From NCBI GenBank assembly GCA_963843145.1, contig CAWJJC010000017.1:1-64000 (forward strand): a stretch of DNA of 64,000 bases. Reading direction: 5' to 3'. Positions 55,737 to 62,356 of this stretch are shown one piece after another. The notes below the pieces were generated by a model, which saw nothing but the letters and a program-made list of their open reading frames with translations, ran no database searches and was not told the origin of the DNA. The translations under genes were made by a program, and so were the position numbers. Source of the stretch: an uncultured delta proteobacterium. GTDB taxonomy: Bacteria; Desulfobacterota; RBG-13-43-22. How positions within the stretch are numbered: position 1 is the stretch's first letter; every line of letters begins with the position of its first letter.

Positions 55737-56146
55737 CTACTCCTCAAGCAGGATCAATTGGAGATAGATGTGGGTAACGGAGACGGGGGCAATTTGGACG
55801 CGGATTTCACCACCGGGAAATAAGTTGGTCTGAGTGTTGAGATAAGCTGTTCCTGCCGTAAGACTTGCGGCGAGTGCCGCTTCGGCTCCAGATACTGTCC
55901 CGCCATTCACGGCAATAAAAGTCGGACTGTATGACGCGGCCAGGGTCATATCTAACGTACGGACGTAATCTCCTGAAGTCACGCCGGAAGGGAAACCAGG
56001 GAATGTTGGGACCGTCGTGGCGACTCCGGTATTCGTGGTTGGTAGCTCAGGACTATGTATGTGCGACGCGGTAACATTCCCTAAAAGACCACTGAAGGGA
56101 ACATTCAGACTCAGTGTGTGAAGTATATCATCGTAATCGATATCTG
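55737..56146 (-). pseudogene. CHRD-domain protein remnant, no start codon
   Basis: FSGLLGNVTASHIH...VATTVPTFPGFPSGVTSG...AYLNTQTNLFPGGEIR. The frame is closed by TAG near 56174 with no ATG. Confidence 0.75.
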
Positions 56147-56281
56147 CTCCGGACTTTACAAATCCCTCTGCATCCTAAACTTCCCTTAAACGGGGGCATG
56201 ATCTTCGAAAATCTCGAAATCCTGACCAAAGGTTTGGATGGCTTTGGCGGCCTCGGCCAACGGGCTCAACCCATCCGATTG

Positions 56282-57169
56282 TCAGCCGACCATCTCGCGG
56301 ATAACCTCTTTTACGGAGAGGATGTCTTTGACGAGCTTTGAAATCTGCCCTGCAGGAAGAATCCCCACATGCACATTCCCCTTGATCCAGGAATCCTCCA
56401 TGGCAGGACCACCGAAGACCGACATCGCTTGAGTCTCTCCACCTCTGATTCGCTCCGTCAGAGATGTCCGCAAGGCTCGAACTTGGAAACGTCCCAGGTC
56501 AATGAGCACAGTCCCCAAGTCATTTGCTTCAAGGATGAGGTTCTTGTAGTTGTCATGCGCGACGCATTCCTTTGTGGCTATGAATCGCGTTCCTACTTGG
56601 ACACCCTCAGCCCCGAGAGCCATGGCTGCCCTGTACCCCCGGGAGTCCCCTATTCCTCCGGCAGCGATTACCGGAACCTTGACCTCGTCCACAACCGCGG
56701 GAACCAGAACCATTGTTGATGGTCCCCCAAAGCCCTGCACCCCACCTGATTCACTGCCTTCCGCCACAATGGCGTCCGCGCCCAACGCCTCCGCCTTGCA
56801 GGCAGAATCGACGGTCGGTGCTACGACCAGGACTTTTACCCCACGTTCACGGAGAAAGGGAATCAACTGCTTTGGAGATCCCCCGGAAACTGTCACGGCG
56901 CCTATGCCTTCCTCGGCCATCACTGCGGCGAATTCCAACGCCTTGGGATTCATGGCAAAGAGGTTCGCTCCAAAGGGTTTTTTCGTACGCTCCTTGGTGG
57001 ATCGTACCTGATTACGTACAACTTGTGCATCAGTCGCGAAAGCCGTCGCGAGAAGGCCGTAGCCACCCGATTCAGAAACCGCGGCCACGAGCTCCGGATT
57101 ACATATTACTCCCATGGCGCCCTGAATGACTGGATAATCAACACCTAAAATTTCAGAGACACGCGACAT
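56282..57169 (-). CDS. Nitronate monooxygenase / FabK-like flavoprotein
   Basis: YPVIQGAM, AEGSESGG, PVIAAGGIGD, GVQVGTRF. Confidence 0.9.
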   Translation of the reverse strand: MSRVSEILGVDYPVIQGAMGVICNPELVAAVSESGGYGLLATAFATDAQVVRNQVRSTKERTKKPFGANLFAMNPKALEFAAVMAEEGIGAVTVSGGSPKQLIPFLRERGVKVLVVAPTVDSACKAEALGADAIVAEGSESGGVQGFGGPSTMVLVPAVVDEVKVPVIAAGGIGDSRGYRAAMALGAEGVQVGTRFIATKECVAHDNYKNLILEANDLGTVLIDLGRFQVRALRTSLTERIRGGETQAMSVFGGPAMEDSWIKGNVHVGILPAGQISKLVKDILSVKEVIREMVG

Positions 57170-57351
57170 TCTTCTGTACCTCCATTTCAGCCAGAATTAT
57201 GTAGATTTTTTTCTGCTCCTAGGCGTCCACAAAGCCCACAAGCCGGCAACTTCTAATAGATGGCGTCAAGGTGGATTACTCCCCCTCCCTGGACCATGTC
57301 CTTGGGAGTGGCCAGATTTCCTTGCCCAAGGATATCATTTTTGGTATCATT

Positions 57352-57537
57352 ACAGTTGACGAATACCTGAAAACCTGCAAGAGGATCGGGCGAGAACCGG
57401 AAAAGCCTTTCTCCGGTCGGTTCATGGTGCGGATTCCTTCCGAGCTGCATTGTGCCATTGCCCTGGCGGCCAAGAGGGAACGCAAGAGCATCAACGCCTG
57501 GATCGCCGAAATTTGTGAACAAAACGTTTTTGCTTAG
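57352..57537 (+). pseudogene. hicB: HicB-family antitoxin C-terminal remnant
   Basis: VDEYLKTCKRIGREPEKPFSGRFMVRIPSELH..IALAA...SINAWI. N-terminus and hicA absent. Confidence 0.75.
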
Positions 57538-58982
57538 CCTTTCACCACCCCAAGCGGCCGGAGCCGCGCCACCTTTTTAGAAATCCCGGCGCCGTGAACC
57601 ACCTCCACCACCTGGGCCACGTCCTTATAGGCCTCGGAGATCTCTTCCACCACCGTGCCCATTCCAGCCCCCCGGACGATGATCCCCTTATCTTCCAGCT
57701 CCCGGAGGACGGCATGACCCCGGGCGGCTTTTTTAGCAGCCTGGCGGCTCATGACCCGTCCGGCGCCGTGGCAGGTGCTGCCGAAGGTCTCGGCATAGGC
57801 CTGTTGGGTCCCCAACAGCACATAGGAGTAACGACCCATATCCCCGGGGATGATCACCGGTTGCCCCAGTTCAAAAAAATCAGGAGGGATCTGGGGGTGA
57901 CGGGGAGGAAAGGCCCGGGTGGCTCCCTTGCGGTGAACGCACAGCCGTCTGATTTTCCCTTCAACCAAGTGATCTTCAAACTTGGCAATGTTATGGCACA
58001 GGTCATAAATCAATTCCAGTCGAAGATCCTTCGGTCCGCGTTGCAAGACCCGCTCCAGGGTTTCCTGGACCCAGTGGGTAATGATCTGCCGGTTGGCAAA
58101 GGCGAAATTAGCCGCCGCCGCCATGGCCCCCAGATAGTCCTGCCCTTCCGGGGAATTGATGGGGGCGCAGCACAATTGCCGGTCCGGGAGCTCGATGCCA
58201 TACTTGGCCGTGGCCCGGATAAGCTGTTTGATGGAATCGTCGCAGACCTGATGGCCCAGCCCCCGGGAGCCGGTATGCACCATAACCGTCACCTGATCTT
58301 CAAAAAGCCCCAGGGCCCGGGCCGCCGCCGTTTCATAAATCGTTTCCACGTAGCCCACTTCCACAAAATGATTCCCCGATCCCAGGGTTCCTAACTGGTC
58401 CTTCCCCCGTTCCAGCGCCCTGTTGGAAACGAGGTCCGGCCGAGCCCCTTCGATGCACCCCGCCTCTTCAATATGTTCCAGATCCTTGGGCGATCCATAG
58501 CCCTGCCGAACGGCCCATTGAGCCCCCTGCTGGAGGACCTTTTCCTGGTCTTTCGGAGAAAGTTTAAAGTCCTTGCGGTGGGACCCGACCCCGGAAGGGA
58601 TGTTGCGGAACAGGGCGTCCACGATTTCTTTCATTTTTCCTTGAAGGTCATGGCGGCTCAACCCGGAGCGCAGCAGACGCACGCCTCAGTTGATATCATA
58701 GCCCACCCCGCCAGGGGAAACGATCCCCTCCGCAGGGTCAAAGGCCGCTACTCCGCCGATGGGAAACCCGTACCCCCAGTGGATGTCCGGCATGGCCAGG
58801 GAATTCCCCACGATCCCCGGCAGCCAGGCCACGTTAGCCACCTGGTTCAGGCTCTGGTCCTTCCGGATATCCGGCAACAGCTCCGGAGAAGTGAAAACCA
58901 GGCCGTCGGTCCGCATCTTCCCCTCCCGGGGGATTCGAAATCGATAAGGATCGATTTGTTCCATCTTGATTTTATCCGCCAT
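57534..58982 (-). CDS. rtcB: RtcB RNA ligase with an in-frame TGA at the catalytic Cys (probable selenocysteine)
   Basis: [14 protein letters not shown]...[16 protein letters not shown]. Downstream [39 protein letters not shown], terminal KG are intact and in frame. Confidence 0.92.
58653..58671 (-). promoter_or_regulatory. Candidate bacterial SECIS hairpin
   Basis: mRNA GC-GCUC-(CGGGUU)-GAGC-C-GC. The loop starts 21 nt after UGA and has G at its second position. Confidence 0.55.
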
Positions 58983-59023
58983 ACGCCCTCCCCTAAAATT
59001 TTTCTGAACAGAGAAAAATTTAA

Positions 59024-59342
59024 GACGCTTCGCCCTTTTGGGTGGGTACCCCCCAGATCTGGTATGGCCGATGGGTCTCGGCGAAAGGGCTTTCCAAAGG
59101 TACTCCGGACTTCGAACCCGGGCCTAAAATACCAATTTTATTTGAAGCAGGCCCAAACTCAGAGGCTTTTGATGCTTCTTCGGCCGGCCCTGCCTCTGTG
59201 AAGATTTAGTAACATGGGGGCCGGGTTAGAACCTATAAAGCAAGGTGGAAAACCCTTTCGCCGAGACCCATCGGCCACGAAGGCCTGATTTCAGTCTAAT
59301 CTACCAGATATTGTGGCCACCCACCCAAAAGGGCGAACAACC
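59024..59342. mobile_element. MITE-like element with long imperfect inverted arms and an 8-bp target duplication
   Basis: Arms TTCGCCCTTTTGGGTGGGT...GGGTCTCGGCGAAAGGG and the reverse complement at 59246-59337. Flanked by AAATTTAA at 59016-59023 and 59343-59350. Confidence 0.75.
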
Positions 59343-59352
59343 AAATTTAAAA

Positions 59353-59781
59353 CTAAATATCAAAAATCACCCTGGCCCGCCAGCCTTTCGGGGTTTCCCG
59401 AATCTGCACTTGGTGATAGGTTACGGCCTTAACCCCGTGTTTGAAACCGTGCCGTTCCGGATCGTAATCCTCCCCCCAAACCCGGGCCTTCAGCGACCGA
59501 TCGTTCAGCTCCTCGATTTCAAAACGGCTGAAAACCAGACGGCGGGCGTCGAATAAATACAATAGTTCTCCCAGCCAGGCCACCAGCAGGGCCTCGCGAT
59601 CCGGCGCTTCGACCGAGACCTCCAGCGGTTTTATCGGTTTAATCTTCCGGACGTCCACCAGGAGGTCAAAAAAAGCCCAGGCCGATTGCTCGAAAAGGTC
59701 AGCCCGGTCTTTGCCTTGAACCGTCATCCCCAGGTCCCCGGTGTGGCTGATTAAGCGATAGGGCTTCCGGCTGAAAGTCAT
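59353..59781 (-). CDS. Archease (RtcB activator)
   Basis: SHTGDLG, LLVAWLGELLYL, VKAVTYH, C-terminal VIFDI. Confidence 0.95.
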   Translation of the reverse strand: MTFSRKPYRLISHTGDLGMTVQGKDRADLFEQSAWAFFDLLVDVRKIKPIKPLEVSVEAPDREALLVAWLGELLYLFDARRLVFSRFEIEELNDRSLKARVWGEDYDPERHGFKHGVKAVTYHQVQIRETPKGWRARVIFDI

Positions 59782-59875
59782 GGGGCTATTGTAACCCAAG
59801 GCAGTTTCTTCTTGCAATCTCACTGTTTACCTATTAAAAACCTAATTCAATTGATCCACTGCTTTAGGAGTGACT

Positions 59876-62356
59876 ATGATTAGACCCATTGTGCTGCTCT
59901 GCTTTTTTTTCTCCGGTTTCAGCGGGTTGCTGTATGAAGTCTTATGGCTGCGCCTGCTGATCCTCATCTTCGGCTCCACTACCCTGGCCATCAGCACGGT
60001 CTTGACGGCCTTTATGGGCGGTCTGGCCCTGGGCAGCTACTTTTTCGGCCGGATGATGGATCGTCAAAAACGTCCCCTCCTCTATTACGGAATACTGGAA
60101 GGGGTTATCGGTCTTTACGCCTTGATCATCCCCTGGATCTTCGGCAGCCTGATTCCGGTCTACCAATTTCTCTGGCAGCAATTTAATTTGAATTTCTACA
60201 GCTTCACCCTCCTGCAATTCCTGCTGATTACCGTGGTCCTGATCATTCCCACCACCTGCATGGGCGCCACCTTGCCCATCCTGAGCACCTGGGCCGTCCG
60301 GGAAGAAACCACCCTGGGGGTGACCATCGGCCGTCTTTACGCCTTGAACACCTTCGGGGCCGTGTTAGGCACCGCCCTCAGCGGTTTCTTCCTGTTGCCC
60401 GCTCTGGGGGTCCAACATACCTTGTGGATCGCCGTAGGCATAAACCTGCTGGTCGCCCTGCTGATCCTCGCCCTGTTGCCCCGGTTTCCTGAGCGTCCGA
60501 TGGTGGCGGAATCTCCGGGGTCAAAACCTGCTGGGAAATTTCTGGAAGCCACTTCGGGCCTACTGCCCAAGAAGGTAGTCTGGTCCATCGTCATCGGGAT
60601 CTCCCTATCCGGATTTATCTCCATGATCTACGAAGTGGCCTGGAGCCGGACCCTGTCTCTGCTGGTGGATTCTTCGGTTTACGGTTTTACCATCATGCTG
60701 ACCACTTTCCTGGTCGGGATCGCTTTCGGGTCTCTGATTTTTTCCCGGTGGGTGGATACCTTTCGTTACCAGGGATTTACCTGGGCACTGATGCAAATCG
60801 GAATCGGGGTCCTGGCCTTCCTGAGCCTGATTTTTTTTCAGGAGCTCCCCTACCTTTACCTCTTGCTTTACCAGACCATCGGGCAGTCCATCAATTTGCT
60901 TTTGCTCGGGAAGTACCTGCTGGCTTTTTTTATCATGTTGGCCCCTACCCTTTTAATGGGCGCCCTCTTCCCCTTGACCATCAAAATCTGCATGTCCCAT
61001 CTCAACCAGGTGGGCCGACTGGTGGGCAATATTTACACTATCAATACCCTCGGCTGCATTTTGGGGTCCTTTGCCGGCGGCTTCTTCCTGATCCCGCTGA
61101 TCGGTATCCGCAACACCATCCTGTTGGGCATCGGTCTGAATCTGCTCTACGGCCTATACGTCCTCTTGATCTCCCCGGCCCCGCGCCTCTATTTGAAAAG
61201 AGCGGCTTATGCGCTGACCATTCTTTTCGCGGCCGCCATCATGGCCTTTCCACCCGAATGGAAAGCGCCCTTGATGGCCAGCGGCGTCTATATCTATGCT
61301 CATAATTTTGAAAACACCTCCCGGTCCGACCTCCTGGCCATGTATTCCCCCCAAAACGAACCCCTCTTGTATTATAAGGAAGGGCAAACCTGCACCATCA
61401 GCGTCCATAAGTCCAAGTACACCGGAACCATTTACATGAAGTCCAACGGCAAAGTGGAGGCCTCGACCAAGGGGGACATGCCTACTCAGGTGCTGGTGGG
61501 CCACATTCCGCTGCTGCTGGCGCCCAAATTGGATGAAATCCTGGTGGTCGGCATGGGCAGCGGGGTGACGATCGGATCCGTGACTACCTTCCCCGCGAAA
61601 AAAATTACCCTGGTAGAACTGGAACAGGCGGTTATCGAAGGGTCCCATTTCTTTGACCACGTCAATTACCGTCCGCTGGAGGACCCGCGGATGCTTCTAC
61701 GGGTGGCCGACGCCCGTAATTACCTCCTGGTGACCCCCGATTTTTATGACGTGATCATTTCCGAACCTTCCAACCCCTGGATGGCCGGTATCGCCAACGT
61801 CTTCACCCGTGAATTTTTTCAGCTCGGCTTCGACAAGCTTAAACCGGAAGGCGTTTTCTGCCAGTGGCTGCAGTTATATAAAATTTCCCCGGAAAGCTTT
61901 AAAACCGTTTTGCGGACCTTTCGCGCCGTCTTTCCCCACGTCTACGTTTTCCAGCCTCAGGACAAAGACCTGGTCCTGGTGGGTTTCAAAACCCCTCCCG
62001 TGTTTTCTACGGCGGAGATCGAAAAACGAATGCAATGGCCCAAAGTGGCCCAGGACCTGAAGCGTATTGAAGTTACGGAATTGAAAACCCTCCTGGATCG
62101 TTTCGTGATGGGTCCCCGGGAAATTGCCGTGCTGACTCAAAAAGGCCCGCTCAATACGGATGACAATAACATCATTGAATTTTCCACGCCCAAGTCCCTG
62201 TTTGAAGAAACGGCGGAACTGAACAGCCAGGTCCTGGAACCCTTCCGCCGTCCGGCCGGAGACTATTTTAAGGACACCCTGCCGCTTCAGAGCCCGACTT
62301 GGAAATATGACAACTTCCGGCAGACCAATAACCCGAAAAGTCTAACAGGAGACTAA
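59876..62356 (+). CDS. Fused MFS / spermidine-synthase-like protein
   Basis: LLYEVLWLR, MGATLP, YALNTFG repeated TM units; VGMGSGVT, VELE, ADARNYL, DVIISEPSNPW. Confidence 0.9.
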   Translation: MIRPIVLLCFFFSGFSGLLYEVLWLRLLILIFGSTTLAISTVLTAFMGGLALGSYFFGRMMDRQKRPLLYYGILEGVIGLYALIIPWIFGSLIPVYQFLWQQFNLNFYSFTLLQFLLITVVLIIPTTCMGATLPILSTWAVREETTLGVTIGRLYALNTFGAVLGTALSGFFLLPALGVQHTLWIAVGINLLVALLILALLPRFPERPMVAESPGSKPAGKFLEATSGLLPKKVVWSIVIGISLSGFISMIYEVAWSRTLSLLVDSSVYGFTIMLTTFLVGIAFGSLIFSRWVDTFRYQGFTWALMQIGIGVLAFLSLIFFQELPYLYLLLYQTIGQSINLLLLGKYLLAFFIMLAPTLLMGALFPLTIKICMSHLNQVGRLVGNIYTINTLGCILGSFAGGFFLIPLIGIRNTILLGIGLNLLYGLYVLLISPAPRLYLKRAAYALTILFAAAIMAFPPEWKAPLMASGVYIYAHNFENTSRSDLLAMYSPQNEPLLYYKEGQTCTISVHKSKYTGTIYMKSNGKVEASTKGDMPTQVLVGHIPLLLAPKLDEILVVGMGSGVTIGSVTTFPAKKITLVELEQAVIEGSHFFDHVNYRPLEDPRMLLRVADARNYLLVTPDFYDVIISEPSNPWMAGIANVFTREFFQLGFDKLKPEGVFCQWLQLYKISPESFKTVLRTFRAVFPHVYVFQPQDKDLVLVGFKTPPVFSTAEIEKRMQWPKVAQDLKRIEVTELKTLLDRFVMGPREIAVLTQKGPLNTDDNNIIEFSTPKSLFEETAELNSQVLEPFRRPAGDYFKDTLPLQSPTWKYDNFRQTNNPKSLTGD

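Follow-up and report, generated by a model that had tools for sequence, protein, structure and literature searches.

RtcB is a GTP-dependent nucleotidyl-transfer ligase that works with a binuclear Mn2+ centre and without a redox step, and its two metal ions are bridged by an invariant cysteine (Cys). In Pyrococcus horikoshii RtcB, as described in a 2023 review (PMC10630183), the ligands of one Mn2+ ion are Cys98, His234 and His329, and those of the second are Asp95, Cys98 and His203. Replacement of the equivalent Cys by Ala leaves the enzyme inactive, and the residue has been seen in an oxidised state in protein purified aerobically (PMC10630183). Such oxidation strips RtcB of its catalytic metals and its activity (PMC10630183, PMC13247085), and a 2026 review terms the cysteine of RTCB its 'Achilles heel' (PMC13247085). 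In metazoans, the same problem of oxidative loss of the active-site Cys is met by PYROXD1 or thioredoxin, which guard RTCB. Here, we analyzed a stretch of 64,000 nucleotides (nt) from an uncultured delta proteobacterium (positions 1 to 64,000 of contig CAWJJC010000017.1, assembly GCA_963843145.1; hereafter the window) whose rtcB gene, on the minus strand at 57534..58982, has an in-frame TGA at the codon for this residue. We propose that this codon is read as selenocysteine (Sec, U).

The use of Sec in place of a Cys metal ligand, as proposed here for RtcB, is known from formate dehydrogenase (FdhA; Mo/W) and from [NiFeSe] hydrogenases (Ni), but these are redox enzymes, whereas RtcB is not. In the case of [NiFeSe] hydrogenase, Sec seems to be advantageous in that it guards the active-site Ni against irreversible overoxidation (PMC13188914). 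Given these precedents for Se-metal ligation, the novelty of a Sec-containing RtcB would lie in the enzyme class and not in the chemistry. Sec has also been engineered into P. horikoshii RtcB at position 98 with the UTu system, which relies on a UAG codon and on delivery by EF-Tu (PMC4150793). This position is exactly homologous to the one considered here, but the engineered protein (U98) is artificial and is not a natural selenoprotein, and its authors treat position 98 as a protein-splice junction (PMC4150793). The P. horikoshii enzyme has an intein at the Cys98 junction (PMC4150793), whereas the window gene is free of one; the proposed Sec recoding and the Pyrococcus intein junction are thus two unusual genetic events at the same catalytic residue.

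No report of a natural Sec-containing RtcB was found in the literature searched, supplementary tables and subscription journals lying outside that search. The 119 prokaryotic selenoprotein families and subfamilies tabulated in a review of May 2026 include neither RtcB nor any other RNA ligase, and no RNA-processing enzyme is among them (PMC13188914, Table 1). The main text of a 2025 paper on nine new selenoprotein families does not mention RtcB (PMC12013277), and two RtcB reviews contain no word starting with 'seleno' (PMC10630183, PMC13247085).

In the list of open reading frames (ORFs), rtcB appears as two minus-strand ORFs of one frame, 58686..58982 (98 amino acids (aa), ending in ...GGVGYDIN) and 57534..58682 (382 aa, starting at a GTG within GVRLL). 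A preliminary description of this DNA, made without database searches, had proposed that the two parts are separated by a TGA alone and that the other RtcB motifs are intact, and the present analysis bears out both statements. The sole in-frame TGA of the gene is codon 99 (58686..58688, read from 58688 to 58686 on the minus strand), between ...GGVGYDIN and GVRLL..., and this is the codon proposed to specify Sec. When TGA was translated as U throughout the frame, a single 482-residue product of about 53 kDa was obtained, in which U99 is the only recoded position and which ends at a genuine TAA stop after 482 codons. Residues 47-482 of this product matched positions 1-426 of the 426 in the Pfam RtcB model (PF01139; E 9e-178), and a genome-wide search with PF01139 returned this gene, at 585 bits, as the one RtcB gene of a genome that is 97.9% complete. 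No NCBIfam model for a selenoprotein RtcB was found among the matches to the product; its best NCBIfam match consisted of the two extein halves of an intein-containing RtcB and remained under the cut-off of that model.

The comparison with Cys-type RtcB of known structure (P. horikoshii PH1602, PDB 1uc2/4dwq/4isz/4it0; Thermus thermophilus TTHA1785, PDB 2epg) extended over the full length, the product aligning end to end with TTHA1785 (E 1e-190) and with P. horikoshii RtcB (E 3e-169). All metal-binding and guanylylation residues were aligned: D95, H203, H234, H329 and H404 of the P. horikoshii enzyme correspond to D96, H205, H236, H330 and H405 of the window's RtcB, and the motifs around these residues are identical. 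An archease gene lies nearby, as with the Cys-type enzymes. The difference at the active site lies in the codon for the invariant metal-bridging Cys, which is TGA and not TGC or TGT. In the alignment to the solved structures, the counterpart of U99 is Cys98 of the P. horikoshii enzyme, which agrees with the earlier assignment of this site to the invariant, Mn2+-ligating and oxidation-sensitive Cys (PMC10630183). If U99 is Sec, the chemistry would be analogous to that of the Cys enzyme, with a different residue.

We then considered how far the TGA is shared. RtcB matches were present in 37 of 41 related genomes, 19 of which (the window's own included) had exactly one in-frame TGA, and among 30 loci from related genomes the Cys column held TGA in 19 and a Cys codon in 11. 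A scan with one genome per species gave 80 loci, with TGA at the column in 21 and TGC or TGT in 59. According to their record titles, the TGA forms belong to delta-proteobacterial/Thermodesulfobacteriota metagenome-assembled genomes (MAGs) and to Acidobacteriota MAGs, the latter from Vicinamibacteria, Thermoanaerobaculia, Polarisedimenticolia and Marinacidobacterales. After six duplicates and three truncated loci had been removed, 101 unique complete homologous genes remained, in which the Cys98 column was TGA in 33, TGC in 56 and TGT in 12; the frames of the Sec forms among them comprised 474-495 codons and were intact apart from the TGA. Even sampling of the window's phylum (401 genomes) gave RtcB at E 1e-60 or better in 326 genomes. 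One TGA was found in 47 of the 150 matches listed (184 weaker matches lay outside these 150), and thus in at least 47 genomes. The members of these 47 that were absent from the earlier sets provided 32 further loci, which had been chosen for one in-frame TGA, and in 32 of 32 the TGA occupied the same column and there was no other stop. Sampling of 151 genomes from the phylum of an Acidobacteriota MAG gave one TGA in 4 of 72 RtcB matches, the column being unexamined for the three new ones. Altogether, 64 distinct sequences share the TGA in this column, a pattern not attributable to chance; the other relatives have Cys there, and none of the 64 has an additional stop or a frameshift.

When the 101 proteins were placed in a maximum-likelihood tree, one well-supported group of 80 rows (47 Cys and 33 Sec forms) contained every Sec form. 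Within the tree the two forms are interleaved, with at least 11 label changes, and branches with good support require at least 7 of these. Such a mixture of Sec and Cys orthologues is typical of selenoprotein families, and it excludes a one-off nonsense mutation here. Pairwise ratios of nonsynonymous to synonymous substitution rates (dN/dS) between Sec forms were 0.03-0.16 before the TGA (codons 8-98) and 0.05-0.16 after it (codons 113-482; 13 pairs attempted, one of the two values being uncomputable in three pairs where dS was saturated). Relaxed selection on the 3' part, which the preliminary description had named as evidence that would refute its proposal, was therefore not seen; purifying selection is as strong downstream of the TGA as upstream of it.

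The UGA is followed, within the coding sequence, by a hairpin resembling a bacterial Sec insertion sequence (bSECIS) element at 58653..58671 on the minus strand, GCGCUC-[CGGGUU]-GAGC(C)GC. Its 5' arm GCGCUC occupies 58671-58666, the loop CGGGUU 58665-58660 and the 3' arm GAGC-C-GC 58659-58653, so that the stem has 4 bp, a bulged C and 2 further bp below a 6-nt loop. The distance from the UGA is 14 nt to the stem and 20 nt to the loop, and the latter is 20-21 nt in relatives. The hairpin announced in the preliminary description is therefore present, and the 21 nt given there is the position of the first base of the loop, with 20 nt between it and the UGA. The published bSECIS model requires an apical loop of 3-9 nt and an upper stem of 4-16 bp (PMC13188914, legend of Figure 2), a G in the first two loop positions that is usually followed by G or U, a distance of 16-37 nt between UGA and apical loop and a minimum free energy (MFE) of -7.5 kcal/mol or lower (PMC13188914). 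The location of the hairpin in the coding sequence after the UGA, its 6-nt loop, the loop sequence CGGGUU and the 20-nt spacing all fit this model, but the window copy has only 4+2 bp with a bulge and falls short of the cut-off in stability. Two hairpins are common among the Sec forms, that of the window and GCGCUCA-[GGUC]-UGAGC(C)GC; loops comprise 4-6 nt and in relatives are mostly GGUC or CGGGUU, with one AGUU and one GGAU. The GGUC loop of many relatives is also that of the Escherichia coli fdhF element. The threshold of -7.5 kcal/mol was reached by 28 of 33 and 29 of 32 relatives in two sets, as counted from printed values. Rfam gave no match at E up to 1 in 57000-60500, and a tRNA scan found none in 56000-61000.

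As a plain comparison of MFE with synonymous recodings proved weak (median p 0.08 for Sec forms), a positioned test was used in its place, which asks for a hairpin of -4 kcal/mol or better at the fixed place and which was designed after the data were seen. Such a hairpin was found in all 64 distinct Sec forms, in 14 of 68 Cys forms and in 2704 of 12800 synonymous recodings (21%); for individual sequences, p was at most 0.05 in 55 of the 64 Sec forms. In Sec forms, synonymous diversity reaches its minimum for the whole gene over codons 104-110, where the hairpin lies (0.343, the gene averaging 0.555; 476 seven-codon windows), whereas in Cys forms the same codons ranked 449 of 476. The helix is nearly invariant among Sec forms, with 86% of cells paired compared with at most 49% for slid partners. 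Where amino-acid changes occur in this region (S109E, R105G, R110A/V, S109M and G107S+S109E), the helix is continuous or re-registered, and the register-shifted helices of such variant lineages, identified by eye from alignments and single-sequence folds, are often stronger (-11 to -17 kcal/mol). Four Cys-form loci with TGT or TGC that are close to Sec forms (L007, L029, L047 and L053) retain the Sec-form hairpin sequence unchanged, and a fifth (L008) differs from it by one base (L007 and L008 are orthologues at 83-84% identity); the four look like recent Sec-to-Cys replacements that carry a fossil SECIS.

The preliminary description had also pointed to the Sec machinery, and selA, selB, selC and selD were all found in the genome (5.35 Mb, 32 contigs). 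The selA gene lies at C28:727775-728872 (E 5e-156), a profile match to the SelB wing domain at C27:357164-357301 within an open frame of 651 aa, and a 97-nt tRNA-Sec gene (selC) with anticodon TCA at C28:246093-246189. The selD gene (C27:447576-448499) is itself of the Sec type, with its own in-frame TGA in the context ...AAG-U-ASKLGPG. At 16 nt after this UGA there is a 5-bp hairpin with loop CGGGC and -5.7 kcal/mol, which resembles the rtcB element in its loop and in its weak stability. Of 1465 open frames with 400 codons or more, 537 end in TGA, which is thus an ordinary stop in a standard code. Among the 19 Sec-RtcB genomes from the window's group, 18 gave a SelA match, as did all three Acidobacteriota Sec-RtcB genomes tested. 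As a discriminator between Sec and Cys forms, SelA was considered and dropped, being present in 37 of 41 related genomes whichever form of RtcB they have. It should be noted that one relative (G020, C13:443527-444625) has a second selA copy, broken by TGA, TAA and frame changes, beside an intact one.

The public protein records reflect the way in which this codon is handled. Among the best 120 matches to the product in a collection of 5.8 billion proteins, 12 were proteins of 366-382 aa that start just past the TGA (91-95% identity), the other 108 were full-length Cys forms, and none spans the column with U. As the public proteins begin after the TGA, the Sec-RtcB family is present in the databases but is mis-called. 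These truncated records are devoid of the N-terminal 100 residues and of the key ligand. The expectation that automated annotation would call the gene a pseudogene was not confirmed, since what the databases hold is a truncated RtcB of 366-382 aa. Coverage of the site was taken from assembled Logan contigs, not from raw reads. A 176-nt DNA contig of run X1, which may be the source sample, is identical over 58547-58722, and a 343-nt contig from an RNA library of a relative (X18) spans the TGA, with no difference at 58686-58688 among the rows listed (82 further rows lie beyond these).

On the basis of these results, it is highly probable that the window's rtcB encodes a full-length ligase in which UGA99 is read as Sec by SelA, SelB, tRNA-Sec and SelD under the direction of the downstream hairpin. 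The Sec reading gains support from the presence of the machinery, from the sharing of the TGA and from the selection acting on the 3' part. A number of observations weigh against it and have to be set beside this support. The evidence for Sec in RtcB is at the level of sequence, the literature searched having yielded no 75Se labelling or mass spectrometry of such a protein, and every Sec form whose record title was examined comes from a MAG. One Sec-RtcB genome (G002, 90% complete) yielded no SelA. The engineered U98 enzyme of P. horikoshii was recovered as a cleaved fragment (PMC4150793).

The remaining points of this kind concern the hairpin. It occurs in the 14 Cys forms mentioned above as well, and the window copy (-6.1 kcal/mol) is among the weakest and does not reach the bSECIS cut-off of -7.5 kcal/mol, with p values of 0.33 in the plain MFE comparison and 0.055 (borderline) in the positioned test. 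The preliminary description had called for a covarying hairpin; conservation of position was found, but classical covariation is nearly absent. Among 33 Sec sequences no pair had changes on both sides, and among 64 there was one pair, with 2 two-sided cells. The covariation score for the 64 sequences was 0.097 compared with 0.086 for shuffles, of which 13 of 500 scored as high, and RNAalifold applied to a 65-sequence alignment did not recover the hairpin and gave only a trivial 3-bp structure. With two-sided changes near zero and the failure of RNAalifold, no covariation is claimed. Furthermore, when free mRNA is folded from the UGA, a different structure is favoured (-13.3 kcal/mol), the conserved pairs reaching probabilities of 0.01-0.14. 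This competing fold probably uses nt 4-13 after the UGA. With the UGA in the A site, these nucleotides would be enclosed by the ribosome, and the conserved hairpin would be the structure still able to form; in line with this, the hairpin is the MFE structure when the leading 13 columns (UGA plus the 10 nt behind it) are omitted.

Three other explanations of the UGA were weighed. That rtcB is decaying and has acquired a nonsense change, or that a base was miscalled in the assembly, would agree with the treatment of the gene as broken by gene callers and with the 366-382-aa fragments that are its closest database proteins, and the sequences that cover the TGA site are assembled contigs only. We regard this as barely conceivable, because the TGA column is shared by 64 distinct sequences that represent two phyla and stem from many independent assemblies, other stops and frameshifts are absent, dN/dS is about 0.1 on both sides, the gene is the sole rtcB of its genome, and the 176-nt DNA contig, though possibly from the source sample, is identical over the site. 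An equally different view takes the UGA as a programmed termination or regulatory site, yielding a 98-aa peptide with or without a separate 382-aa protein, or acting as a selenium-dependent gate. A GTG two codons past the TGA does give the 382-aa ORF chosen by gene callers, and some termination product is to be expected, as bacterial Sec decoding is generally inefficient. Yet a split at the metal-bridging residue would strip the ligand from both pieces, its loss inactivates RtcB, and close relatives with TGC or TGT make a single-chain protein. Such a site therefore seems extremely unlikely, and a selenium gate, for its part, is compatible with Sec insertion and would not replace it.

Read-through without Sec is also very unlikely in our judgement. 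In this case, Trp, Cys or Arg would be inserted by near-cognate decoding, or Cys would be carried on tRNA-Sec, and the hairpin would merely slow termination; the inserted residue is not defined by sequence data, and the weakness of the window hairpin would suit such a process. Against this, TGA alternates solely with Cys codons at a position where Ala inactivates RtcB, and Sec/Cys pairing is the signature used for selenoprotein discovery (PMC13188914). Moreover, the Sec machinery accompanies the gene in 18 of 19 Sec-RtcB genomes from the window's group and in all three Acidobacteriota genomes tested, the loop and spacing of the rtcB hairpin resemble those at the genome's own selD UGA, and low-level near-cognate decoding would be an odd route to the only RNA ligase of this type in the genome.

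If UGA99 is read as Sec, the following course of events may be proposed. SelB and Sec-tRNA-Sec would bind the hairpin at 58653-58671, which lies 14-33 nt downstream of the UGA within the coding sequence, as the ribosome arrives at UGA99, and Sec would be inserted. Sec99 would then replace the invariant Cys that bridges the two catalytic metal ions, which would be held through D96, U99, H205, H236 and H330. After guanylylation on H405 with archease, ends with a 3'-phosphate or a 2',3'-cyclic phosphate would be joined to 5'-OH ends. Since the rest of the active site is unchanged and archease is encoded, the normal pathway through RtcB-GMP and RNA-ppG is expected, with a selenolate in place of a thiolate. 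What the sequence data show directly is the codon and its conservation, the selection on both halves of the gene, the positioned hairpin, the Sec machinery and the absence of another rtcB; Sec insertion, metal ligation by Se and ligase activity are predictions from homology.

With regard to the advantage of such an exchange, oxidised Se species are reduced more readily than sulfinic or sulfonic acids. The benefit of Sec is thus most likely an easier recovery from oxidation at the weak point of RtcB, although a changed metal preference may be the benefit instead. The fuller proposal, that Sec99 bridges the binuclear centre and has been kept because a selenolate recovers from an oxidation that is lethal to the Cys enzyme, is a tentative one to which we would give somewhat less than an even chance, and oxidation resistance of Sec-RtcB is accordingly put forward as a hypothesis. 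Whereas animals add a protecting oxidoreductase to RTCB, the window's RtcB changes the residue itself, presumably in a protective role.

The gene for archease, the activator of archaeal/eukaryote-type RtcB, was located at 59353..59781 on the minus strand (PF01951, E 1.1e-43). Its likely start is the ATG at 59781, and the open frame reaches back to a GTG at 59823. In tblastn searches, archease was found upstream on the same strand at every Sec-form locus and at most Cys-form loci. The preliminary description had rtcB next to archease; the archease gene is indeed intact and on the same strand, but the two genes are separated by 373 nt, compared with 156 nt in the closest relative. This gap contains a dispersed palindromic repeat, an element of about 325 nt (58995-59345, minus strand) for which folding gives a very long stem (-179.6 kcal/mol, z -12.4). 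Alignments of 290 nt or more connect it with 29 genomic sites, spread over 14 contigs and 68-98% identical, a count that includes the window copy and reverse-strand self-matches of the palindrome. The element is absent at the rtcB loci of relatives and has no Rfam match, and can be read as an insertion similar to a miniature inverted-repeat transposable element that has widened the gap between archease and rtcB. By reading of its sequence, it also holds a hairpin similar to a tRNA T-arm. The idea that this spacer might be a Y-RNA-like partner of RtcB was rejected, as no Ro/TROVE gene was found in the genome and the element is a dispersed repeat missing from the relatives' loci.

On either side of these genes, two further ORFs were noted. 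An 88-aa ORF at 57271-57537 (plus strand) resembles a HicB-family antitoxin (PF05534, E 7e-20), is convergent with rtcB and overlaps its stop by 4 nt. An 828-aa ORF at 59870-62356 (plus strand), divergent from archease, encodes a spermine/spermidine synthase domain together with an MFS-like membrane region.

Sec-RtcB is, in summary, a well-known enzyme in a new form, reached through a well-known recoding mechanism. It is very probably a genuine selenoprotein family that has not been listed previously, and very probably one that is widespread in anaerobe-rich lineages of two phyla while apparently missing from the inventories. The family adds RNA ligation and repair as an enzyme class to selenium biology. 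The truncated public records, from which the key ligand is missing, show that a Sec-aware RtcB model is needed for automated annotation. As Cys occurs in close relatives, a ready-made natural comparison exists, and Sec and Cys forms can be used to probe oxidation tolerance, metal preference and guanylylation chemistry. If Sec99 does bridge the metal centre and has been kept for its recovery from oxidation, RNA metabolism would gain its first selenoenzyme, and the question 'why selenium' could be put to a clean natural test where the active site is not a redox one. Bacteria of soil, wetland and sediment would then have fixed by a one-residue swap what animals fix with PYROXD1, and would have made RNA repair and ligation dependent on the supply of selenium.

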